From contig JBAYGJ010000002.1 of NCBI GenBank assembly GCA_041666685.1, positions 1 through 55,788 of the forward strand: a DNA stretch of 55,788 bases, in the 5' to 3' direction. Below the pieces are notes generated by a model. That model did no database searches. It was given only the letters and a program-made list of their open reading frames with translations, and was not told the origin of the DNA. Every line of letters begins with the position of its first letter. The first letter of the stretch is position 1. Below, piece after piece: positions 2 through 45,861 of this stretch. The position numbers and the translations under genes were made by a program. This DNA is from Patescibacteria group bacterium (lineage in GTDB: Bacteria > Patescibacteriota > Patescibacteriia > UBA10025 > JAHIVO01).

Positions 2-658
2 ATGAAGCTGGAGAAACGGAAGAAATACCTCCATGTCGCCCTTAACAGCACACTCGAAGAAGCGAGAGAAATCATTTCTCAATTACCGACTTCGAACAGG
101 ATATTAATTGAGGCGGGCACTCCTATGATAAAAATATACGGGGCAGAAGCCGTTTCCCAGATTAAGTCCATTGCTCCTCCCGGAGCCTACATAGTGGCGG
201 ATAACAAATGTACAGATTTAGCGCCGCGTGAAGTAGAAATGATGGCCAATGCCGGCGCCAATGCCGCCACCTGTCTAGGAGTCGCGCCAATCGAAACGAT
301 TGATAGTTTTATAGAGGAATGCCAAAAATACAATATTGATTCGATGATTGACATGATGAATGTCGACAACGCACTGTCGGTCTTGAAGAAACTGAAAAAA
401 TGCCCCACCGTTGTGATGTTGCATCGGGGGGTTGACGAAACCGAATTTTCAAAAGAAAAGCAGATCCCTTACTACCAGATAAAACAGATCAAAGGAAATT
501 ATGATGTTCTTGTGGCGGTAGCGGGTGGTGATACGACGCGGGAGGTCCAGAGGGCAATTTTTAACGACGCGGACATTGTCGTCGTCTGGAAAAATTTTTA
601 TCAACCAAGCGCAGAGACAGCCCAGTTGGCCGACTCATTTTTGAGGGAGATAAAATAA
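2..658 (+). CDS. 3-hexulose-6-phosphate synthase / KGPDC-like (OMP-decarboxylase fold) protein
   Basis: 218-aa ORF. LHVALN..IEAGTP near the N-terminus and VAVAGG..T near the C-terminus resemble the HPS/KGPDC ribulose-phosphate-binding barrel family. The ATG is at the window edge, so the true start could lie upstream. Confidence 0.55.
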   Translation: MKLEKRKKYLHVALNSTLEEAREIISQLPTSNRILIEAGTPMIKIYGAEAVSQIKSIAPPGAYIVADNKCTDLAPREVEMMANAGANAATCLGVAPIETIDSFIEECQKYNIDSMIDMMNVDNALSVLKKLKKCPTVVMLHRGVDETEFSKEKQIPYYQIKQIKGNYDVLVAVAGGDTTREVQRAIFNDADIVVVWKNFYQPSAETAQLADSFLREIK

Positions 659-664
659 TTTTGT

Positions 665-1432
665 TTATTTTTGCTTGACCGTTTGGGATATTGCTTTAAT
701 CCCCTCGAGCACTTCAACCGGCAGGGCAAAAATCACGGTCTTTGACGGGTCCGGGTTTATTTTTTCTATTGTTTGTAATGTTCTCATGGAGAGGCCACCG
801 GGGACTGAACTGAGCACGTGGGCCGCCTGAGCCAGCCGTTCTGATGCCTGGTATTCCCCTTCTGCCCTGATAATGACGGCGCGACGCTCACGTTCTGATT
901 CGGCCTGTTTGGCCATGACGCGTTTCATGTCGGCGGGGAGTTCGATGTCTTGGATTTTTATATCCGTAACCAAAATCCCCCAGGATTGGGTAGCTGCGCT
1001 GACAATTTTTTGTACTTCTTCGGCAATCTTTTCGCGTTCGGAAAGGAGAGGATCAAGTTCGATGGCGCCGATGACGTCACGAAGAGCAGCCTGCGCATAT
1101 TGCGAAACTGCCGTCGTATAGTCCTTGATGTTCAGAATTGCGTTTTCGGCATTTTCTACCTGGAAATAGACAACTGCATTTATGCCCACCGGGACATTGT
1201 CTTTGGTAATGACTTCCTGCTGCGGAATGTCAGTGGTGGTTATGCGCAGATCAACTTTCATCATTCGTTGGAAACCGACAAAGATCCAGGTCAAGCCCGG
1301 CATCCGGGTGCCTGTAAATTTCCCAAGCGTCAAAACGACGCCGCGTTCATATTGGTCAATAATCCTCAGGCCAAGAAGGATAAAGAAACCGACAATGATG
1401 ATTGGCCAGATTAAAATGAGAAGTATTTCCAT
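665..1432 (-). CDS. SPFH/band-7 (stomatin/HflC-like) membrane protein
   Basis: The tracked ORF 665..1474 begins with TTG; the first ATG is at 1432. It has an N-terminal TM helix (ILLILIWPIIIVGFFILLGL), then a band-7 core (RGVVLTLGKF..VDLRI..AVVYFQV) and a coiled AEGE-rich C-terminal part. Confidence 0.8.
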   Translation of the reverse strand: MEILLILIWPIIIVGFFILLGLRIIDQYERGVVLTLGKFTGTRMPGLTWIFVGFQRMMKVDLRITTTDIPQQEVITKDNVPVGINAVVYFQVENAENAILNIKDYTTAVSQYAQAALRDVIGAIELDPLLSEREKIAEEVQKIVSAATQSWGILVTDIKIQDIELPADMKRVMAKQAESERERRAVIIRAEGEYQASERLAQAAHVLSSVPGGLSMRTLQTIEKINPDPSKTVIFALPVEVLEGIKAISQTVKQK

Positions 1433-3624: not shown

Positions 3625-3821
3625 TTTGGGCAATGCTCTTTGGAATTACAAATAATTAATAGGCCGTTCGTCAATCTGCCAGGAACCGTGAATTACGCTT
3701 ACTACTTTTCGTAGACTTTTATCTCCAGTGAACTGTCGGTCCACTCCGGATAAAGGTTTATGAAGTGGTAGCGCTAGAGCCGGATCCGCAACGTGATGGG
3801 CAGGCCAAGAAGGAAAAAAGT

Positions 3822-6095
3822 ATGTCTAAGATCGAAAAGTTTTCTACAGAAATCGCCGGCCGCGAGCTGACTTTTGAAGTCGGCCGATTCGCCGGCCAGG
3901 CCAATGCCGCCTGTGTCGTGCAGTATGGCGATACGGTCGTACTCGCTACGGCTGTCATGAGCAAAAATACGCGCGAAGGCATCGATTACTTCCCGCTCCT
4001 CGTTGATTACGAAGAGAGGCTGTATGCCGCCGGGAAAATTAAAGGCTCGCGTTTCATCAAACGCGAAGGACGGCCTACTGACGAAGCAATCCTGACTTCC
4101 CGTCTGGTAGACCGATCAATCCGCCCGTTGTTCAATCAGTCAAGCCGGCAGGACGTGCAGGTGGTGCTGACCGTATTGTCCGTCGACCAGGAGAATGATC
4201 CTGATATCATTTCACTTCTGGCGGCCTCATGCGCGCTGTCGATTTCCAATATTCCCTGGAGCGGCCCGGTGGCCGGCGTACGTATCGGCCAGATCAACGG
4301 CGAGTGGGTGCTGAATCCGACCTATGCGGCCCGTGAAAAAAGCGTCATGGACCTGGCCGTGATCGGGAAAGCTGATAAAATTACCATGATCGAGGCCGGC
4401 GCGCTCCAGATGTCCGAAGATACCATGTATGCCGGTATGGAGTTTGCGCAGAAGCATATCGCTAAACTCATTTCTTTCATCAATGACATCCAGACGAAGA
4501 TCGGCAGGCCGAAAGAGTCTATTGCCTCTACGGGACCGACGGAAGAGGAGAAAGCTAAGTCGGAAAAACTGAAGGAAAAAGTAAAGAATTTCTGTCAGGC
4601 CAAGATCGGGTCAGTTTTTGAACATAAGGACCGGCATGCCCAGGGCGAGGCGATGGATGCCCTCCGGACCCAACTGGAAGAAGTACTCAAAGCGGATAAT
4701 GAAGTTACGAAAGAAGAGCGGGCCAAAGGGCTTAAAATGGTGGATGGCATATATGAGGTAGAGTCCCGGCGCATGGTACTGGAAGAAGGCCGGCGCGTTG
4801 ATGGCCGGGCAGTAGATGAAATCCGTCCGTTATCGGCTGATGTGGCATTACTCCCCCGCACGCATGGTTCCGGTTTATTCAACCGCGGTGAAACCCAGGT
4901 ATTATCAGTAGTTACGCTCGGATCCCCAGGTGACGAACAGACGATGGACTCAATGGAAGAGTCTGGTAAAAAGCGTTTTATGCATCATTATAATTTTCCG
5001 GGCTTTTCCACCGGTGAGGTGGCTCCTGTCCGATCGCCAGGCCGCCGCGAAATTGGCCATGGCGCGTTGGTAGAAAAAGCCCTGTCCCAAGTGATGCCCG
5101 CCAAGGATAAGTTCCCCTATACGATTCGTGTCGTATCGGAAGTGCTGTCATCAAACGGCTCAAGTTCGCAGGCATCGTGCTGCGGTTCGTCATTGGCGCT
5201 GATGGATGCCGGCGTGCCGATTCTCGATCCGGTAGCCGGTATTGCGATGGGTTTGATTTCCGACGAAAAAGACCCGTCACGATTCAAGGTGCTGACAGAT
5301 ATCCAGGGCATTGAGGATCATAATGGTGATATGGATTTCAAGGTGGCCGGTACTAAGAATGGCATCACGGCCATCCAGATGGACGTGAAACTGGACGGCA
5401 TTTCGCTCGAAGTGGCCAGACAGGCACTTGATGGCGCCAAGAAAGCCCGCTTGCAGATATTGGATGTGATGACAAAAGCCATCCCGGCTCCGCGGGCCGA
5501 GCTGTCAAAATATGCGCCGCGCATCACCATGCTGAAGATCAATCCGGAACTGATCCGCGAAGTGATCGGCAAGGGCGGCGAAACGATCAATAAGATCATT
5601 GATGAATGCGGCGGAGCTGATGTCATCAAGATTGATATTGAGGATGATGGTCTGATATACATCACTTCGGCTCATGCTGACATGGCGAAGAAGGCTGAAG
5701 ATTGGATCCAGAATATCGTTAAAGAAGTATTGCCGGGAGAAATATATGAAGGAACGGTGACGCAGATCCTGAAAGACCGCAACAGCGGCGGTGAAATCGG
5801 CGCGGTCGTGGAAATAGCGCCAGGCAAGGACGGCATGGTGCACATTTCGGAATTTTCTCAGGGACGTATCAGGAATGTTTCTGATGTCGTACATGTGGGG
5901 CAAAAGATAAAAGTCAAAGTGGTTGACGTGGACAAGGAGCGGGGCCGGACGAGTCTGTCGGTCAAGGCTTTGGGGACGGACAGTGATTTGGTCATCCCGC
6001 CGTCAGCTCTTGATACGTCAGGCGGTTTTGACCGAGGCGGATCCCGCGGACGCCCGAGCGGTGGTCGTCCCCCATTCAGACACGGCCCGAGATAA
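3822..6095 (+). CDS. pnp: polynucleotide phosphorylase with an RG-rich C-terminal tail
   Basis: Full-length PNPase architecture: two RNase PH domains, KH (GKGGETINKI) and S1 (GTVTQILK..GMVHISE). The ATG at 3822 is preceded by AAGGAAAAAAG. The rpsO-pnp synteny is classical. Confidence 0.95.
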   Translation: MSKIEKFSTEIAGRELTFEVGRFAGQANAACVVQYGDTVVLATAVMSKNTREGIDYFPLLVDYEERLYAAGKIKGSRFIKREGRPTDEAILTSRLVDRSIRPLFNQSSRQDVQVVLTVLSVDQENDPDIISLLAASCALSISNIPWSGPVAGVRIGQINGEWVLNPTYAAREKSVMDLAVIGKADKITMIEAGALQMSEDTMYAGMEFAQKHIAKLISFINDIQTKIGRPKESIASTGPTEEEKAKSEKLKEKVKNFCQAKIGSVFEHKDRHAQGEAMDALRTQLEEVLKADNEVTKEERAKGLKMVDGIYEVESRRMVLEEGRRVDGRAVDEIRPLSADVALLPRTHGSGLFNRGETQVLSVVTLGSPGDEQTMDSMEESGKKRFMHHYNFPGFSTGEVAPVRSPGRREIGHGALVEKALSQVMPAKDKFPYTIRVVSEVLSSNGSSSQASCCGSSLALMDAGVPILDPVAGIAMGLISDEKDPSRFKVLTDIQGIEDHNGDMDFKVAGTKNGITAIQMDVKLDGISLEVARQALDGAKKARLQILDVMTKAIPAPRAELSKYAPRITMLKINPELIREVIGKGGETINKIIDECGGADVIKIDIEDDGLIYITSAHADMAKKAEDWIQNIVKEVLPGEIYEGTVTQILKDRNSGGEIGAVVEIAPGKDGMVHISEFSQGRIRNVSDVVHVGQKIKVKVVDVDKERGRTSLSVKALGTDSDLVIPPSALDTSGGFDRGGSRGRPSGGRPPFRHGPR

Positions 6096-21483: not shown

Positions 21484-21502
21484 TATATTTATTAAGGTGA
21501 CT

Positions 21503-21574
21503 AGGCGTGAGCGGGAATTGCACCCGCGTATAGAGGTTTTGCAGACCTCTGCCTTACTACTTGGCTATCACGCC
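21503..21574 (-). tRNA. tRNA-Cys (anticodon GCA), no encoded CCA
   Basis: Reverse complement: GGCGTGA-TA-GCCA..GGC-A-GAGGT-CTGCAAA-ACCTC-TATAC-GCGGG-TGCAATT-CCCGC-TCACGCC-T. The U73 discriminator and A13/A22 mismatch are typical of tRNA-Cys. Confidence 0.85.
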
Positions 21575-21578
21575 TTAA

Positions 21579-23589: not shown

Positions 23590-23601
23590 AGCGGGTAGGG
23601 A
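23590..23601 (-). repeat. 12-nt copy of the tRNA-Gly(TCC) 3' end (outer 3' piece)
   Basis: agcgggtaggga is identical to 23620-23631. Confidence 0.6.
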
Positions 23602-23606
23602 CTTAT

Positions 23607-23704
23607 TTAAGTCACATTGAGCGGGTAGGGAGAATCGAACTCCCGGCAACAGGTTGGAAACCTGTGGTATTACCACTATACGATACCCGCTCAATGTGAC
23701 TTAA
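23607..23704. repeat. perfect 21-nt inverted repeat framing the intact tRNA-Gly(TCC)
   Basis: ttaagtcacattgagcgggta (23607-23627) is the exact reverse complement of tacccgctcaatgtgacttaa (23684-23704). This extends the 7-bp acceptor stem by 14 bp. Confidence 0.9.
23620..23690 (-). tRNA. tRNA-Gly (anticodon TCC), no encoded CCA
   Basis: Reverse complement: GCGGGTA-TC-GTAT-AGTGGTA-ATAC-C-ACAGG-TTTCCAA-CCTGT-TGCC-GGGAG-TTCGATT-CTCCC-TACCCGC-T. Confidence 0.9.
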
Positions 23705-23782
23705 TTGTTGTAAATATGTTTGTGAATCGCCCGTGAACCACTGAATGGTTCAGGGCGTCATGTACCCTTGAGTGGTACATAA

Positions 23783-23837
23783 CGAACTCCCGGCAACAGG
23801 TTGGAAACCTGTGGTATTGCCACTATACGATACCCGC
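23783..23837 (-). pseudogene. 55-nt 5' copy of tRNA-Gly(TCC), positions 1-55, truncated in the T-loop (outer 5' piece)
   Basis: 54/55 identical to 23636-23690 (single g/a difference at 23819 vs 23672). The copy ends at ..GGGAGTTCG. Confidence 0.85.
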
Positions 23838-23987
23838 ATTAATGCTAAGGATGCCAAAGAAAATTATTAAGGTCAATATAGTAATTTCCTTGCCTCATTG
23901 TAACCTCAACTCCTTCTTTTTTCAAGTGCAGGGTTCGGTGTCGTCGGGTTCTTTTGTATTTATCATAAACAGGATACAATAGAACAT

Positions 23988-24608
23988 ATGGCACAACCAA
24001 CCGTGTCAATCATCCTCCCGACATATAACCGGGCCGAATACCTTGATCGATGCATTTCCTCGGTTGAGCGACAAACGTTTCCTGATTGGGAACTGATTAT
24101 TGTAGATGACGGCAGCACCGACGGCAGCAAGAAAATAATCGATGCACATATCCGGCAAAGCTCCCGGATACGGTATACGTTCCAAAACAATCAGGGAGCG
24201 GCGTACGCGGTTAATGCGGGGATCGGGATGGCTCGGGGCACATACCTGGCTTTCATCGACAGTGATGATGAATATTCGCCTGCCCACCTCAAGCGCCATG
24301 TCGAGTATTTACGCGCTCATCCGGCAGTAGACATGGTGCATGGCAGTTTCTCGGTCATCGGCAGCCCGTATGTGAAAGACAAAAATGATATGACGAAAAT
24401 GATCCACCTATCGAAATGCGCGGTATGCGGGACGTTTTTCGGCAAACGCCATGTGTTTACCCAACTGCACGGATTCAAGCCCCTGTACTATAGTAAGGAT
24501 TCGGAATTTTTTGAGCGTGCAGAAAAGGAATTCTCCCTGGTCAGGCTGGACTACGGGACATATATTTACCACCGGGATACGCCCGGCAGCAAGACAAACA
24601 TCGTATAA
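23988..24608 (+). CDS. family-2 glycosyltransferase
   Basis: VSIILPTYNRAEYL.., IIVDDGSTDGS, FIDSDDEY (DXD) motifs. Confidence 0.85.
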   Translation: MAQPTVSIILPTYNRAEYLDRCISSVERQTFPDWELIIVDDGSTDGSKKIIDAHIRQSSRIRYTFQNNQGAAYAVNAGIGMARGTYLAFIDSDDEYSPAHLKRHVEYLRAHPAVDMVHGSFSVIGSPYVKDKNDMTKMIHLSKCAVCGTFFGKRHVFTQLHGFKPLYYSKDSEFFERAEKEFSLVRLDYGTYIYHRDTPGSKTNIV

Positions 24609-24627: not shown

Positions 24628-24969
24628 TTAGGGATGCCAGAGGAATTCGGCCAGGTCAATATAAAAATTGCCCTGTCTTTTTGAAACGCTGACCCCTTCT
24701 TTTCTCAGGAGTTCGGCTTGGAGGTTTTTTGAATGTATTTGGCAGGTGGTACTGATGCGGCCGGCCCGGTTGATGACGCGCTGCCAGGGCACCAGATGCA
24801 GCTGGCTGTCCGGCAGGACGTGTAAGGCCCAGCCGACCATCCTGGCGGCCCGTGGCGAGCCCAGGAGTGCGGCAATCTGGCCATAGGTGGCGACTTTGCC
24901 ACGGGGAATTTGTTTCACCAACGTATAGACGTCAGCAAAGAAGTTGGTTTTATTTTTTAAGGACGGCAT
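24628..24969 (-). CDS. MGMT-family DNA-binding protein, probably alkyltransferase-like (ATL, no active-site Cys)
   Basis: IPRGKVATYGQIAALLGSPRAARMVGWAL helix-turn-helix. The PCHRV motif is replaced by PWQRV, as in ATL proteins. Confidence 0.7.
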   Translation of the reverse strand: MPSLKNKTNFFADVYTLVKQIPRGKVATYGQIAALLGSPRAARMVGWALHVLPDSQLHLVPWQRVINRAGRISTTCQIHSKNLQAELLRKEGVSVSKRQGNFYIDLAEFLWHP

Positions 24970-30275: not shown

Positions 30276-30420
30276 TGGTCGGGGTGCCCGGGACCCTTCG
30301 ACTTCGCTCAGGGCAGGCTTGTCACCGCCATCCTGTCATCTGACAGGATAGGTCCCGGCGGACCCCCCCGACGATACCGTCGGAAATGATTCCAGCCCTC
30401 CCCAGAGACTGGTCCGCTGA
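30276..30420 (-). repeat. tRNA-Pro 3'-end copy (with CCA) joined to a ~130-nt hairpin-rich insert
   Basis: 30276-30291 is 16/16 identical to 30449-30464, with a similar 3' flank. CCGGGACC (30288-30295) pairs with GGTCCCGG (30351-30358) around the motif cccttcgacttcgctcaggg (30294-30313) and the hairpin ATCCTGTCA/TGACAGGAT. Confidence 0.7.
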
Positions 30421-32360: not shown

Positions 32361-32435
32361 TTGTAGTGGTTGTATCCACTCTATAATAACATGGCTAATT
32401 TATTCTTGGAATGGGATGGTGCCGAGGGCCAGGAT

Positions 32436-32930
32436 TTACTTCAATTTGTTTAGTTGAGTTTTATCCTGGCTGAATTTTACCTCTAAATCAGTAAATAATT
32501 CCAAAACTCCATCTTTAAGAAGCCCCCGAACAATTTGAACCGCAAAATTTGAATCCTGCGCAAGATCGTCAATGCGCACTTTTCGGGCCCGCATTAACCA
32601 GGGCAGATCCTCCCTTGTAGCTCCGAAATAAATATTTGGAATTTTGGCCTGAAAAATTGCCGCACCACACATGATGCAGGGTTCATGGGTTGAGTAAATT
32701 GTACAATCGCTTAAATTATGCGTCCGGAGTATTGTGCAGGCTTTCCGAAGTGCCTGCATTTCTGCGTGTGCAGTCGCGTCACCTTTTGCAATATTTTCTG
32801 CGTGGCCTTTTGCAATAACTTTGCCATTGCACGTTATTACTGCACCAAACGGAAAATCGCCAGCTAGCTTCGCTTTCTTAGCTTCCTGGATGGCAAGGCG
32901 CATGAACGTGTGGTGTAGATTTTCCCTCAT
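32436..32930 (-). CDS. CDA-fold nucleoside/tRNA-adenosine deaminase (TadA or guanine-deaminase type)
   Basis: HAEMQAL and HEPCIMCGAAI zinc-binding motifs. 164 aa. Confidence 0.75.
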   Translation of the reverse strand: MRENLHHTFMRLAIQEAKKAKLAGDFPFGAVITCNGKVIAKGHAENIAKGDATAHAEMQALRKACTILRTHNLSDCTIYSTHEPCIMCGAAIFQAKIPNIYFGATREDLPWLMRARKVRIDDLAQDSNFAVQIVRGLLKDGVLELFTDLEVKFSQDKTQLNKLK

Positions 32931-33019
32931 GCAGTAAGAGTTTGTATTAATGAAAAGCTACCAGATATGCTCAATGGGGCGTTGACAGCTCTTTAAGTCC
33001 GGAGTTTTCCGCACATCTT

Positions 33020-33057
33020 CCGAGGGCCACCTACGGTCGGACTGGCGACTCAAGGAT
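33020..33057 (-). repeat. tRNA-Phe 3'-half copy with a substituted T-loop
   Basis: ccgagggcca (33020-29), cggactggcgac (33038-49) and caaggat (33051-57) match 33084-93, 33098-109 and 33111-17. The T-loop gaat is replaced by cctacggt. Confidence 0.65.
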
Positions 33058-33081
33058 GAAAAGGGTAATTCTGCTCCCAAA

Positions 33082-33153
33082 TGCCGAGGGCCAGAATCGG
33101 ACTGGCGACGCAAGGATTTTCAGTCCTTCGCTCTACCACTGAGCTACCTCGGC
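33082..33153 (-). tRNA. tRNA-Phe (anticodon GAA), no encoded CCA
   Basis: Reverse complement: GCCGAGG-TA-GCTC-AGTGGTA-GAGC-G-AAGGA-CTGAAAA-TCCTT-GCGTC-GCCAG-TCCGATT-CTGGC-CCTCGGC-A. Confidence 0.9.
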
Positions 33154-33163
33154 ATGTGACCGT

Positions 33164-33261
33164 CCTCGGCATTTGGGAGTAATTAGCACCATTCGCTCTT
33201 CCGGGGCGCTTCTATGGGCGCGCCCGCTCTGCTTGTGCAGAGCCCACTTCGCTACCTCGGC
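33164..33261 (-). repeat. two upstream copies of the tRNA-Phe 5' acceptor strand separated by GC hairpins
   Basis: cctcggc (33164-70) plus atttgggag (33171-79) is the exact complement of the tRNA 3' strand plus trailer, giving a 16-bp alternative helix. gctacctcggc (33251-61) is 11/11 identical to 33143-53 and is followed on the minus strand by the hairpins GCTCTGCACAAGCAGAGC and GGGCGCGCCC. Confidence 0.65.
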
Positions 33262-33300
33262 GGATTCACCGGCATAAGCGAGTATTATGATACGTGTCCA

Positions 33301-33377
33301 TGGTGGGGACGAGAGGAGTTGAACCTCTGACCTTCACAATGTCAATGTGACGCTCTAACCAACTGAGCTACGTCCCC
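33301..33377 (-). tRNA. tRNA-Val (anticodon GAC), CCA encoded
   Basis: Reverse complement: GGGGACG-TA-GCTC-AGTTGGTTA-GAGC-G-TCACA-TTGACAT-TGTGA-AGGTC-AGAGG-TTCAACT-CCTCT-CGTCCCC-A-CCA. Confidence 0.9.
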
Positions 33378-33383
33378 GTGGTC

Positions 33384-33466
33384 TGGTGGGCGACCCAGGA
33401 GTTGCACCCTTCGACTTCGCCACCTCGATTTCACTCGGTGGCTTCGCTCAGGGTAGGCCTGGGACC
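33384..33466 (-). repeat. tRNA-Ile 3'-third copy (with full CCA) carrying a ~50-nt insert between the T-stem 5' strand and the T-loop
   Basis: 33385-33408 is 24/24 identical to 33518-33541, and cctgggacc (33458-66) equals 33540-48. The insert carries a split cccttcgacttcgc / cttcgctcaggg motif around the hairpin GCCACC..GGTGGC. Confidence 0.8.
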
Positions 33467-33519
33467 GCTCAAGTATCCAATAACAAATTTCTTCAGCATG
33501 AATGCTATTATTCCCTCGG

Positions 33520-33593
33520 TGGGCGACCCAGGAGTTGCACCTGGGACCTCGTCATTATCAGTGACGCGCTCTAACTACCTGAGCTAGTCGCCC
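33520..33593 (-). tRNA. tRNA-Ile (anticodon GAT); only CC of CCA encoded
   Basis: Reverse complement: GGGCGAC-TA-GCTC-AGGTAGTTA-GAGC-G-CGTCA-CTGATAA-TGACG-AGGTC-CCAGG-TGCAACT-CCTGG-GTCGCCC-A. Leader TTCCCTCAGT and trailer ACCGAGGGAA add 10 bp (one A/C mismatch) to the acceptor helix. Confidence 0.9.
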
Positions 33594-33623
33594 ACTGAGG
33601 GAACAAGTATGGCTACCTGCTTG

Positions 33624-33655
33624 CCCCGAGCGAAGTCGAGGGGAGCTAGTCGCCC
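33624..33655 (-). repeat. 13-nt tRNA-Ile 5' copy fused to the shared GC motif
   Basis: gagctagtcgccc (33643-55) is identical to 33581-93. The adjacent ccccgagcgaagtcgagggg (33624-43) is the shared motif in the orientation complementary to the copy inside the 3' fragment. Confidence 0.7.
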
Positions 33656-33756
33656 ATGCCTTTTTTCCAACAAAAAAACTACAACCTGATGGTACTATTG
33701 TAGTTTATCATACATAAAAAATCAAATGACTGGAGGGATGCTTATAAACCCCTTAG

Positions 33757-33787
33757 CAACCAGCAGGTGGTAAAGAATACGAATCAA
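33757..33787 (-). promoter_or_regulatory. 3' strand of the 16S rRNA processing stem
   Basis: caaccagcaggtggtaaagaatacgaatcaa is nearly perfectly complementary to 35389-35418 on the other side of the 16S gene. Confidence 0.7.
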
Positions 33788-33851
33788 CTCAATGATGTAT
33801 ATCTATACGTACGTCAGAGACGCACGAATATCGACAAATTGGTTACTCCTT

Positions 33852-35347
<1,496 letters not shown>

Positions 35348-35388
35348 TAGTTGGAGTTTTTAACTAGAAAAACTCCCAAAAAAAGGAA

Positions 35389-45753: not shown

Positions 45754-45861
45754 GGGACGGGTAGGGATCCCTCAACATTGCCACTTCGACTTCGCTCGTG
45801 GGCTACGTTCGGGATATTTTTTCTGCCGAAATTTTTTCGCTCAGGAGGAACTTGAAAATTC

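Follow-up and report, generated by a model that had tools for sequence, protein, structure and literature searches.

Nested tRNA gene fragments and a conserved leader-trailer complementarity at the tRNA-Phe locus of a Patescibacteria bacterium

The tRNA-Phe gene described here lies on a 55.8-kb contig (48.7% GC) of a bacterium from the Patescibacteria (Candidate Phyla Radiation); the whole of this stretch is called the window. It is the only tRNA-Phe gene seen in the window, it is essential, and it is unusual in two ways. The gene sits inside colinear pieces of an older tRNA-Phe copy, and its acceptor 3' strand and trailer are complementary to an offset arm in its own leader, a pairing that related genomes retain with compensatory changes. 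We read the nested copies as scars of serial insertion or duplication and the maintained arms as a leader-trailer processing stem, and give this combined reading a probability of about one half. Sequence comparison supports the first part well, and a processing duplex is the most likely role for the arms. The elements of the locus are listed below in minus-strand order, with coordinates given on the plus strand although the gene is on the minus strand.

33244-33261, minus strand: older tRNA-Phe copy, positions 1-18, GCCGAGGTAGCGAAGTGG, 16/18 identical.
33201-33243, minus strand: two GC-rich hairpins in the D-loop of the older copy, GCTCTGC-ACAA-GCAGAGC and GGGCGCGCCC...GCGCCCCGG.
33189-33200, minus strand: older copy, 3' side of the D-stem and 5' side of the anticodon stem, AAGAGCGAATGG as against TAGAGCGAAGGA.
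33065-33186, minus strand: unit of about 122 nt (left arm, 10-nt spacer, live tRNA-Phe, right arm) in the anticodon-loop region of the older copy.
33164-33186, minus strand: left arm, in the leader, CTAATTA-CTCCCAAA-T-GCCGAGG (inverted repeat 16/16, minimum-free-energy fold, six-locus covariation).
33154-33163, minus strand: unpaired 10-nt spacer ACGGTCACAT, from the left arm to G1.
33082-33153, minus strand: live tRNA-Phe(GAA), positions 1-73 (ARAGORN; Rfam RF00005, 69.3 bits).
33065-33089, minus strand: right arm, consisting of the acceptor 3' strand with A73 (33082-33089, common to the tRNA), the trailer and an extension.
33020-33057, minus strand: older copy, positions 38-72, ATCCTTGAGTCGCCAGTCCGA-ccgtagg-TGGCCCTCGG, with a 7-8 nt T-loop insertion and without C72.
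32416-32434, minus strand: the outermost 3' fragment of tRNA-Phe, ATCCTGGCCCTCGGCACCA, which includes CCA and comes straight after the stop codon of tadA.

In minus-strand order these fragments line up as pieces of a single older tRNA-Phe, split in the D-loop, the anticodon loop and the T-loop. The D-loop hairpins are GCTCTGCACAAGCAGAGC (33226-33243) and GGGCGCGCCC...GCGCCCC (33201-33225), and hairpin inserts of similar type occur in older copies at five related loci (L109, L123, L124, L153 and L183). The short piece AAGAGCGAATGG aligns with a cleaner junction, GCGAAGGGACTGAAAA, in L123. This piece and the CCA-bearing ATCCTGGCCCTCGGCACCA after tadA, a 3' end older still, had been missed by a preliminary description of the locus, which had correctly recognized the intact tRNA-Phe gene and the near-copy of its 3' part at 33020-33057; the altered T-loop it reported there is the 7-8 nt insertion. 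Its third copy of GCCGAGGTAGC (33251-33261), followed by GC hairpins, is also present, and is really the 18-nt copy of positions 1-18. The live gene itself encodes no CCA and has the T-loop UCCGAUU (C55).

In the minimum-free-energy fold of the region, the outer acceptor helix closes the whole, with the 122-nt unit nested within, and the region folds better than 200 of 200 shuffled sequences (z = -3.2). By chance, only about 0.0015 exact 12-mers per tRNA should be common to a tRNA and its own 400-nt flank. By these figures the fragments around tRNA-Phe are not due to chance, as the strand bias of flank matches over the whole data set (below) also shows. Simple tandem duplication is ruled out, as the flanks of the fragment do not repeat the flanks of the intact gene. 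Of the insert sequences, nothing recurs elsewhere in the window or in other loci except the parts derived from tRNA and one short GC motif. A permissive Rfam search of 32900-33860 returned three tRNAs and nothing else, with no significant match to group I or II introns, tmRNA or other families. An exact look-up of the 439-aa neighbour protein (the exact window TadA had no record) led to an independent assembly in the European Nucleotide Archive, ERZ27249449 (L209), that matches the window over 7,982 aligned nt with 3 mismatches and one 2-nt gap. There is no difference between the two in 33000-33700, so an assembly artefact is ruled out for the tRNA-Phe structure.

The same layering is found in relatives. 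Metagenomes scanned for tRNA-Phe with the UCCGAUU T-loop of the window gave at least 119 stretches (numbered with an L here), so this C55 form of tRNA-Phe is widespread. Every tRNA in the scanned loci was compared with its own 400-nt flanks (685 tests). Self-matches number 65 on the same strand versus 3 on the opposite strand, and their polarity is 40 downstream 3' parts plus 21 upstream 5' parts (61) versus 4 of the opposite kind; 11 tRNAs of unrelated control genomes gave zero flank matches. The affected sequences are 23 of 120 (the window and 22 loci, among the matches listed). Where an affected locus has a 16S rRNA gene on its contig, identity to the window 16S ranges from 91-92% (L109, L123) down to about 79-82% (L107, L115, L118). 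Clean arrangements of 5' half, whole tRNA and 3' half are seen for tRNA-Ile in L118 and tRNA-Val in L125, while the outer tRNA-Leu of L124 carries three inserts and becomes a perfect tRNA if these are removed. Wherever an interrupted copy was examined, an uninterrupted one with the same anticodon was present inside or beside it, so that splicing of the interrupted ones is not required. Introns of the bulge-helix-bulge type are ruled out at the junctions in L118, L124 and the window, where a continuous helix merely opens a loop.

The view that the layers form a historical record, the older ones common to relatives and the newer ones not, is strongly supported by comparison of the closest loci. 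The tRNA-Phe sequence is identical in the window, L109, L123, L145 and L154. L109 keeps the gene order of the window, and the two align over 2.8 kb, through TrmD, 16S and tRNA-Ile, with 78.6% identity. Two or three older tRNA-Phe layers are present in L123, L145 and L109, and their old hairpin inserts are partly common to all three. In L109 one more copy, itself interrupted, separates the live gene from the older layers, and the trailer of this copy matches that of the live unit in L123. Horizontal transfer of the tRNA-Phe unit into L154 was considered and ruled out; its gene order is the same and its proteins are about 60% identical, so L154 is simply a relative. Searches by other routes added little: a scan of genome collections with TadA gave matches of at most 49% identity, from unrelated phyla; contigs of relatives anchored on TrmD end at the 16S gene, short of the tRNA-Phe locus; and viral contigs held only jumbo-phage tRNA arrays, without arms or fragments. 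As a separate observation, the 16S gene of L123 aligns to that of the window in two blocks about 350 nt apart (about 3724-4075), which suggests an insertion, possibly an intron, that the window gene does not have.

Nor is tRNA-Phe alone in the window. Partial self-copies occur within 200 nt of 8 of its 10 tRNA genes, with 5' pieces upstream and 3' pieces downstream. Two of these loci have the same architecture as tRNA-Phe:

33384-33655, minus strand: tRNA-Ile, live gene at 33518-33593, nested between outer pieces.
23590-23837, minus strand: tRNA-Gly(UCC), live gene at 23619-23690.

The tRNA-Ile locus runs from an outer 5' piece (33643-33655, 13 nt) through a GC arm to the live gene, which stands on a stalk with the strands TTCCCTCAGT (33594-33603) and ACCGAGGGAA (33511-33520), and then through a second GC arm to an outer 3' piece with CCA (33384-33407, 24 nt). 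For tRNA-Gly(UCC) the outer pieces are a 55-nt 5' copy (23783-23837) and a 12-nt 3' piece (23590-23601), and the live gene stands on a perfect 21-bp stalk (23607-23627 with 23684-23704). Both fold as a tRNA within a tRNA (z = -5.1 for Ile, -11.6 for Gly-UCC). The tRNA-Arg gene has a 15-nt 5' piece, after which come an insert of two hairpins and a copy of positions 17-26; tRNA-Cys has self-pieces of 25 and 17 nt; and 3' self-pieces of 19, 16 and 12 nt belong to tRNA-Lys, tRNA-Pro and tRNA-Gly(GCC). Altogether, the genes for Phe, Ile, Pro, Lys and Cys and the two for Gly have 3' fragments of 12-38 nt on their downstream side. CCA is encoded in the outer 3' pieces of Lys, Ile and Cys and in the distal Phe piece, and the live inner genes are without it. 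The preliminary description had offered the scar of repeated insertion events as one of two explanations for the tRNA-Phe locus, and this idea is now strongly supported by the colinear older copies and by the same layering at most tRNA genes of the window and in relatives.

Several further observations concern these tRNA genes and their inserts. Besides the C55 of tRNA-Phe, non-canonical T-loops are found in tRNA-Ile (UGCAACU) and tRNA-Cys (21502-21575; UGCAAUU), both with G55, and the D-loop of tRNA-Ile is odd (AGGUAGUUA); an older outer tRNA-Ile copy in L123 has the canonical UUCGACU. A GC-rich motif, GCCTRCCCTGAGCGAAG..TCGAAGG, adjoins the outer 3' fragments of tRNA-Pro and tRNA-Ile and is inverted beside the outer 5' fragment of tRNA-Ile (positions 30294-30328, 33409-33468, 33619-33643 and 45783-45797 in the window); similar sequence precedes an outer tRNA-Phe 3' fragment in L123. 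Loops of the GCGAAGC or CGAAG type are common among the inserts. In L133 (about 239-900, minus strand) a 38-nt double hairpin, TCCCGCCCGTGGCGGGACCCCGCCAAAGGCGGTGGGAG, follows the outer 5' piece of tRNA-Ile and returns reverse-complemented before the outer 3' piece of the neighbouring tRNA-Pro, the two copies bracketing both live genes. Finally, a 79-nt direct repeat (71% identical; 23846-23924 and 24629-24707) stands on both sides of a glycosyltransferase gene (23988-24608); its first copy, beside the outer tRNA-Gly fragment, contains a potential coding sequence for a 17-aa peptide after an AAGGAG site on the minus strand.

The position of tadA bears on how such layers may arise. In the window, tadA (32416-32930, minus strand, with its adjoining fragment) lies between the live tRNA-Phe and the CCA-bearing Phe 3' fragment, at a spacing of 650 nt. 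In the closest relative with a TadA match, L081 (9887-10531), tadA lies instead between tRNA-Asn and an Asn 3' fragment, beside a TCCCGCC..GGCGGGA hairpin, close variants of which are found at junctions in L093 and L133. In L083, tadA follows tRNA-Trp and a Trp 3' fragment. From these placements tadA seems to move between tRNA loci as a small cassette, and insertions that duplicate a tRNA 3' end evidently do happen in the lineage of the window.

Such insertions recall integrated elements, and the fragments might be nothing more than duplications of the tRNA 3' part (attL/attR) that outlasted the decay of the elements. Fragments of tRNA genes are classically traced to this source (PMC9897764), the 12-19 nt 3' fragments downstream of Pro, Lys, Cys and Gly do resemble att cores, and tadA is flanked by a tRNA gene and a 3' fragment just as an integrated gene would be. 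The explanation is nevertheless improbable for the loci at issue. Just 17-200 nt, not kilobases, separate the intact copy from the fragment, and this stretch has no coding capacity and carries no integrase; upstream 5' fragments are about half as common as downstream 3' fragments (21 versus 40); the halves in L118, L125 and L124 enclose clean insertions without a repeat; and 8 of 10 tRNA genes are affected within 56 kb of core genome. Seven other loci from the scan (L094, L100, L114, L121, L139, L159 and L161) may well be of the ordinary kind. They are GC-rich contigs bearing lone tRNA-Phe 3' halves with GGTCCGATTCC and no intact gene, and look like island att remnants in other phyla, unrelated to the present finding.

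The second feature of the tRNA-Phe locus is the pair of offset arms. A perfect 16-nt inverted repeat (33074-33089 and 33164-33179, 16/16, as the preliminary description had stated) joins, as read on the minus strand, CTCCCAAATGCCGAGG in the leader to CCTCGGCATTTGGGAG, the tRNA 3' strand plus trailer. The last 8 nt of the left arm are a "decoy" copy of the 5' acceptor strand headed by the discriminator complement, whose extra GCCGAGG begins 17 nt upstream of G1; in the right arm, the trailer TTTGGGAG (33074-33081) is followed by the extension CAGAATTAC. The minimum-free-energy fold carries the helix beyond the 16 bp of the repeat. The general order is trailer complement, discriminator complement with 5' acceptor-strand copy, a spacer of 4-13 nt (L170, with the same layout, was not separately included in this range), tRNA-Phe, and trailer. 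Offset arms are present at ten tRNA-Phe loci, including the window, L109, L123, L145, L154, L125, L158, L170 and L183. These loci carry at least four different tRNA-Phe sequences, and the helix is 16-21 bp long in the window and 16-24 bp in the nine others. No offset arms were seen in about 230 tRNAs of other isotypes. The arm sequences differ between loci while their complementarity is kept.

An alignment of the arms from six loci shows the compensatory nature of these differences. Pairing holds in 86.5% of its cells, and both partners have changed in 10 of the 21 pairs. Covariation scores 0.432, as compared to 0.193 +/- 0.039 for shuffled alignments (0 of 500 shuffles reach the observed value), and slid registers pair at just 34-49%. 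The eight pairs outside the tRNA are paired in 48 of 48 cells, with one U-G and no mismatch. At all six loci ViennaRNA predicts an advantage of 3.7-10.9 kcal/mol for the decoy fold over every fold that keeps the true acceptor stem, in nearest-neighbour energies that ignore tRNA tertiary contacts, and the predicted pair probabilities are 0.71-1.0 for the decoy versus at most 0.006 for the true acceptor. The homologous helix of L170 and L183, 24 bp long, reaches no further than C72 and leaves the acceptor stem free, so the cloverleaf and the helix can coexist. What is conserved is evidently the leader-trailer duplex, not the decoy.

The preliminary description had suggested that alternative pairing gates tRNA maturation, and had proposed to examine the idea by comparing folds and related genomes. 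Both comparisons show the helix itself to be real: the decoy fold is predicted to beat the acceptor-stem folds, and complementarity is conserved in six loci, so the objection that it might not be conserved falls away. A regulated gate, in which the decoy helix acts as a switch setting tRNA-Phe maturation by some signal, is a different matter. The predicted dominance of the decoy fold and the conservation of the helix are in keeping with such a switch, and in engineered systems a sequestered leader is known to block RNase P (PMC7897497). But there is no candidate sensor or ligand-binding element and no hint of a ligand; the competing GCCGAGG part has decayed in two relatives (L109, L145) where the non-tRNA part of the arm is perfect, and is missing from L170 and L183; and tRNA-Phe is essential, with no second gene seen in the window. 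We regard a regulated switch as very improbable.

From these patterns we infer both a mechanism for the events and a role for the arms. Repeated local insertion or partial-duplication events at a tRNA gene would build the layers, each event leaving one intact copy, because the gene is essential, and pushing 5' debris upstream and 3' debris downstream. The left arm is a reverse-complement copy of the tRNA 3' end and trailer, as fold-back (template-switch) copying would be expected to produce; for Phe such copying was probably primed on a leftover 5' acceptor fragment. In other isotypes, stalks extend the acceptor stem directly, contiguous with it and perfect over 9-18 bp. Seven stalks of at least 9 bp are seen versus about 0.5 expected, six of the seven in nested loci. 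The perfect 14-18 bp stalks of L109 and L123 tRNA-Ile, L133 tRNA-Pro and the window tRNA-Gly start exactly at the discriminator and include the ACCA complement, the signature expected of fold-back, or quasi-palindrome template-switch, copying.

In the transcript, the leader would pair with the 3' acceptor strand and trailer in a duplex of 16-21 bp. As this duplex is predicted to be more stable than the acceptor stem, tRNA-Phe would mature only after it is cut or unwound. It would most likely serve as a double-stranded processing stem like the RNase III stems around rRNA, and the unpaired spacer would offer RNase P a single-stranded leader. Complementarity is kept across lineages whose proteins are 45-60% identical while the debris turns over, which argues for active maintenance; L154, for example, has its arms and decoy and no outer debris. 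The sequence from tRNA-Val to the left arm shows no promoter-like site, an indirect hint that the two arms may share one transcript.

Several points weigh against this account. Besides the tertiary contacts left out of the folding energies, the acceptor-strand copy has A.C mismatches in L109 and L145 that selection on RNA pairing does not predict. The near-absence of intermediates (one U-G and no mismatch in 48 cells) fits re-templating at least as well as selection. Arms could stay complementary through recurrent re-templating at the DNA level with no function in RNA, and this is a serious rival. Further, template switching does not obviously explain the compensatory differences between inner and outer stems (L118, L124, and tRNA-Ile of L123), nor does it obviously explain the 8-nt repeat ACTGAAAA in L123 or the tadA cassette. 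These better fit true insertion or horizontal replacement.

The rival can be put more fully: the arms and stalks would be neutral by-products of quasi-palindrome template switching, re-templated and tolerated, with no part in RNA processing. It would account for the perfection of the arms and the scarcity of intermediate states, for stalks that begin exactly at the discriminator and copy the CCA complement, for the many inserts that are short perfect palindromes, and for a decoy part that decays by G-to-A changes, which should be disfavoured under RNA pairing. It accounts less readily for offset arms that persist where the tRNA-Phe stems have diverged (L125, with about 45% protein identity to the window), for L170 and L183, which keep a 24-bp helix with no acceptor copy to prime fold-back, and for L154, where the arms were kept and the debris lost. 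A deletion of 17 nt would remove the decoy, yet six lineages keep it. We consider purely neutral maintenance of the arms doubtful on this balance.

True insertion leads to the other rival, in which the arm-flanked unit is a selfish or mobile tRNA cassette that enters the resident cognate tRNA gene at its single-stranded loops and takes over the function of that gene. Having done so, it could not be lost. It might sometimes carry an extra, GC-rich outer pair of arms, and spread between lineages by an unlinked recombinase or by transformation with recombination in the conserved tRNA halves. The unit in L123 has terminal inverted repeats of 21-22 nt and the direct repeat ACTGAAAA on both sides. 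A TAAT(T)A-like motif is common to the outer arm ends of several loci, and insertions do fall in D-, anticodon- and T-loops. The inner and outer tRNA-Leu copies of L124 are almost identical except for fully compensated stems (GGGTAGA/TCTACCC versus GCCCAGA/TCTGGGC), and those of tRNA-Ile in L118 and L123 likewise differ by compensated stem changes. GC hairpin motifs of 25-38 nt lie in opposite orientation at the left and right junctions of different tRNAs (Ile and Pro in the window; L133), the TCCCGCC..GGCGGGA hairpin recurs at junctions in L081, L093 and L133, and tadA behaves in a cassette-like way. On the other side, none of the 38 open reading frames (ORFs) of the window scanned against Pfam is an integrase, transposase or reverse transcriptase. 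The arm sequences are not conserved between loci as transposase-bound repeats would be, dispersed insert copies are absent from the window and from other loci, and the unit is always at the orthologous tRNA locus, never elsewhere. A clean repeat that may be a target duplication is confined to L123; no such repeat was seen in the window, L109, L145, L170 or L183. A mobile cassette is an unlikely explanation. It would be a speculative step, with the odds well against it, to propose that Patescibacteria harbour an unrecognized selfish or self-renewing, palindrome-armed tRNA minigene whose machinery also moves housekeeping cassettes like tadA between tRNA genes.

On the minus strand the gene order around the locus is TrmD, 16S rRNA (33854-35350), tRNA-Ile, tRNA-Val, tRNA-Phe and tadA. 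Neither tRNA-Ala nor 23S comes after the 16S gene, which means that the rRNA genes are unlinked. A hairpin with a T-run (CTACAA..TTGTAG TTTTTTT, about 33700-33665) lies between 16S and tRNA-Ile, and its part GCTGTAGTTTTTTT is conserved in L109 and L123. The 38 ORFs are mostly housekeeping genes, including PNPase, NusA, trigger factor, Ddl and RNase HII, and five have no Pfam match. The host is bacterial, as shown by a 16S that fits the bacterial model, by TrmD and Ddl, and by sigma-70 family genes on the contig. The window TadA is 78% identical to a protein from a metagenome-assembled genome labelled "Patescibacteria group bacterium", and the best-named TrmD matches are labelled likewise.

Transfer RNA genes are usually seen as the most stable landmarks of bacterial genomes, whereas here most carry layered remains of their earlier selves. 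In a phylum of tiny genomes, such remains imply rapid and repeated disruption and renewal of essential genes without recognizable mobile-element genes. The literature we searched has no account from Patescibacteria of nested remnants of tRNA genes or of tRNA units with arms, and the likeness among most tRNA genes here and in affected relatives points to an undescribed way of disrupting and renewing tRNA genes. There is a practical side for annotation, since fragments and interrupted copies can be mis-called when tRNA genes are identified in metagenome-assembled genomes. The covarying tRNA-Phe leader-trailer duplex is, for its part, a candidate processing element in organisms with a reduced and largely unstudied RNA-maturation machinery.

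Among known systems, partial tRNA genes left by mobile-element integration (attL/attR; Reiter 1989, Williams 2002; reviewed in PMC9897764) are similar in that a partial direct repeat of the tRNA stands beside an intact copy with inserted DNA between them, most often duplicating the 3' end, as in the tadA case. They differ in scale, att sites being 9-120 kb apart where the present spacing is 17-200 nt (650 nt for tadA), and in being the work of an integrase. The loci described here further have 5' fragments upstream, a whole tRNA inside split older copies, several layers, and involvement of most tRNA genes. The processing stems cut by RNase III around rRNA, and leader-trailer pairing in pre-tRNA, share with the tRNA-Phe arms a long covarying complementarity of the flanks, here within a 16S-tRNA cluster. 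The tRNA-Phe helix, however, flanks a single tRNA, and in the family of the window it extends into the acceptor 3' strand, which puts it in competition with the mature fold; also, rRNA stems are cut, whereas this duplex is known from sequence and predicted folding.

Quasi-palindrome template switching, in which an imperfect inverted repeat is made perfect by copying one arm from the other (work attributed to Ripley and to the Lovett laboratory), resembles the stalks that start at the discriminator and include the CCA complement. The process is known as a hotspot of point or short-patch mutation, and is not known to build arms of 14-24 bp or nested gene copies at most tRNA loci. Miniature inverted-repeat transposable elements (MITEs) and REPINs (hairpin-forming doublets of REP sequences) are likewise short, non-coding, hairpin-forming and bounded by inverted repeats, and L123 provides one case of a possible target duplication. 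But here a working tRNA is the cargo, the arms vary in sequence, copies are not dispersed, and the site is always the cognate tRNA locus.

Disrupted tRNA genes of archaea were reportedly also treated by Fujishima in 2010. They include genes with multiple or non-canonical introns and split tRNAs (Sugahara 2012, PMC3293823). Like the loci described here, they have short structured inserts in the D-, anticodon- and T-loops, and fragments beside a complete gene that are linked to mobile DNA. Unlike them, the present loci belong to a bacterial host, and their junctions take the form of helix, internal loop and helix instead of bulge-helix-bulge. They thus offer a bacterial parallel to the long-debated origin of archaeal split and intron-containing tRNA genes.

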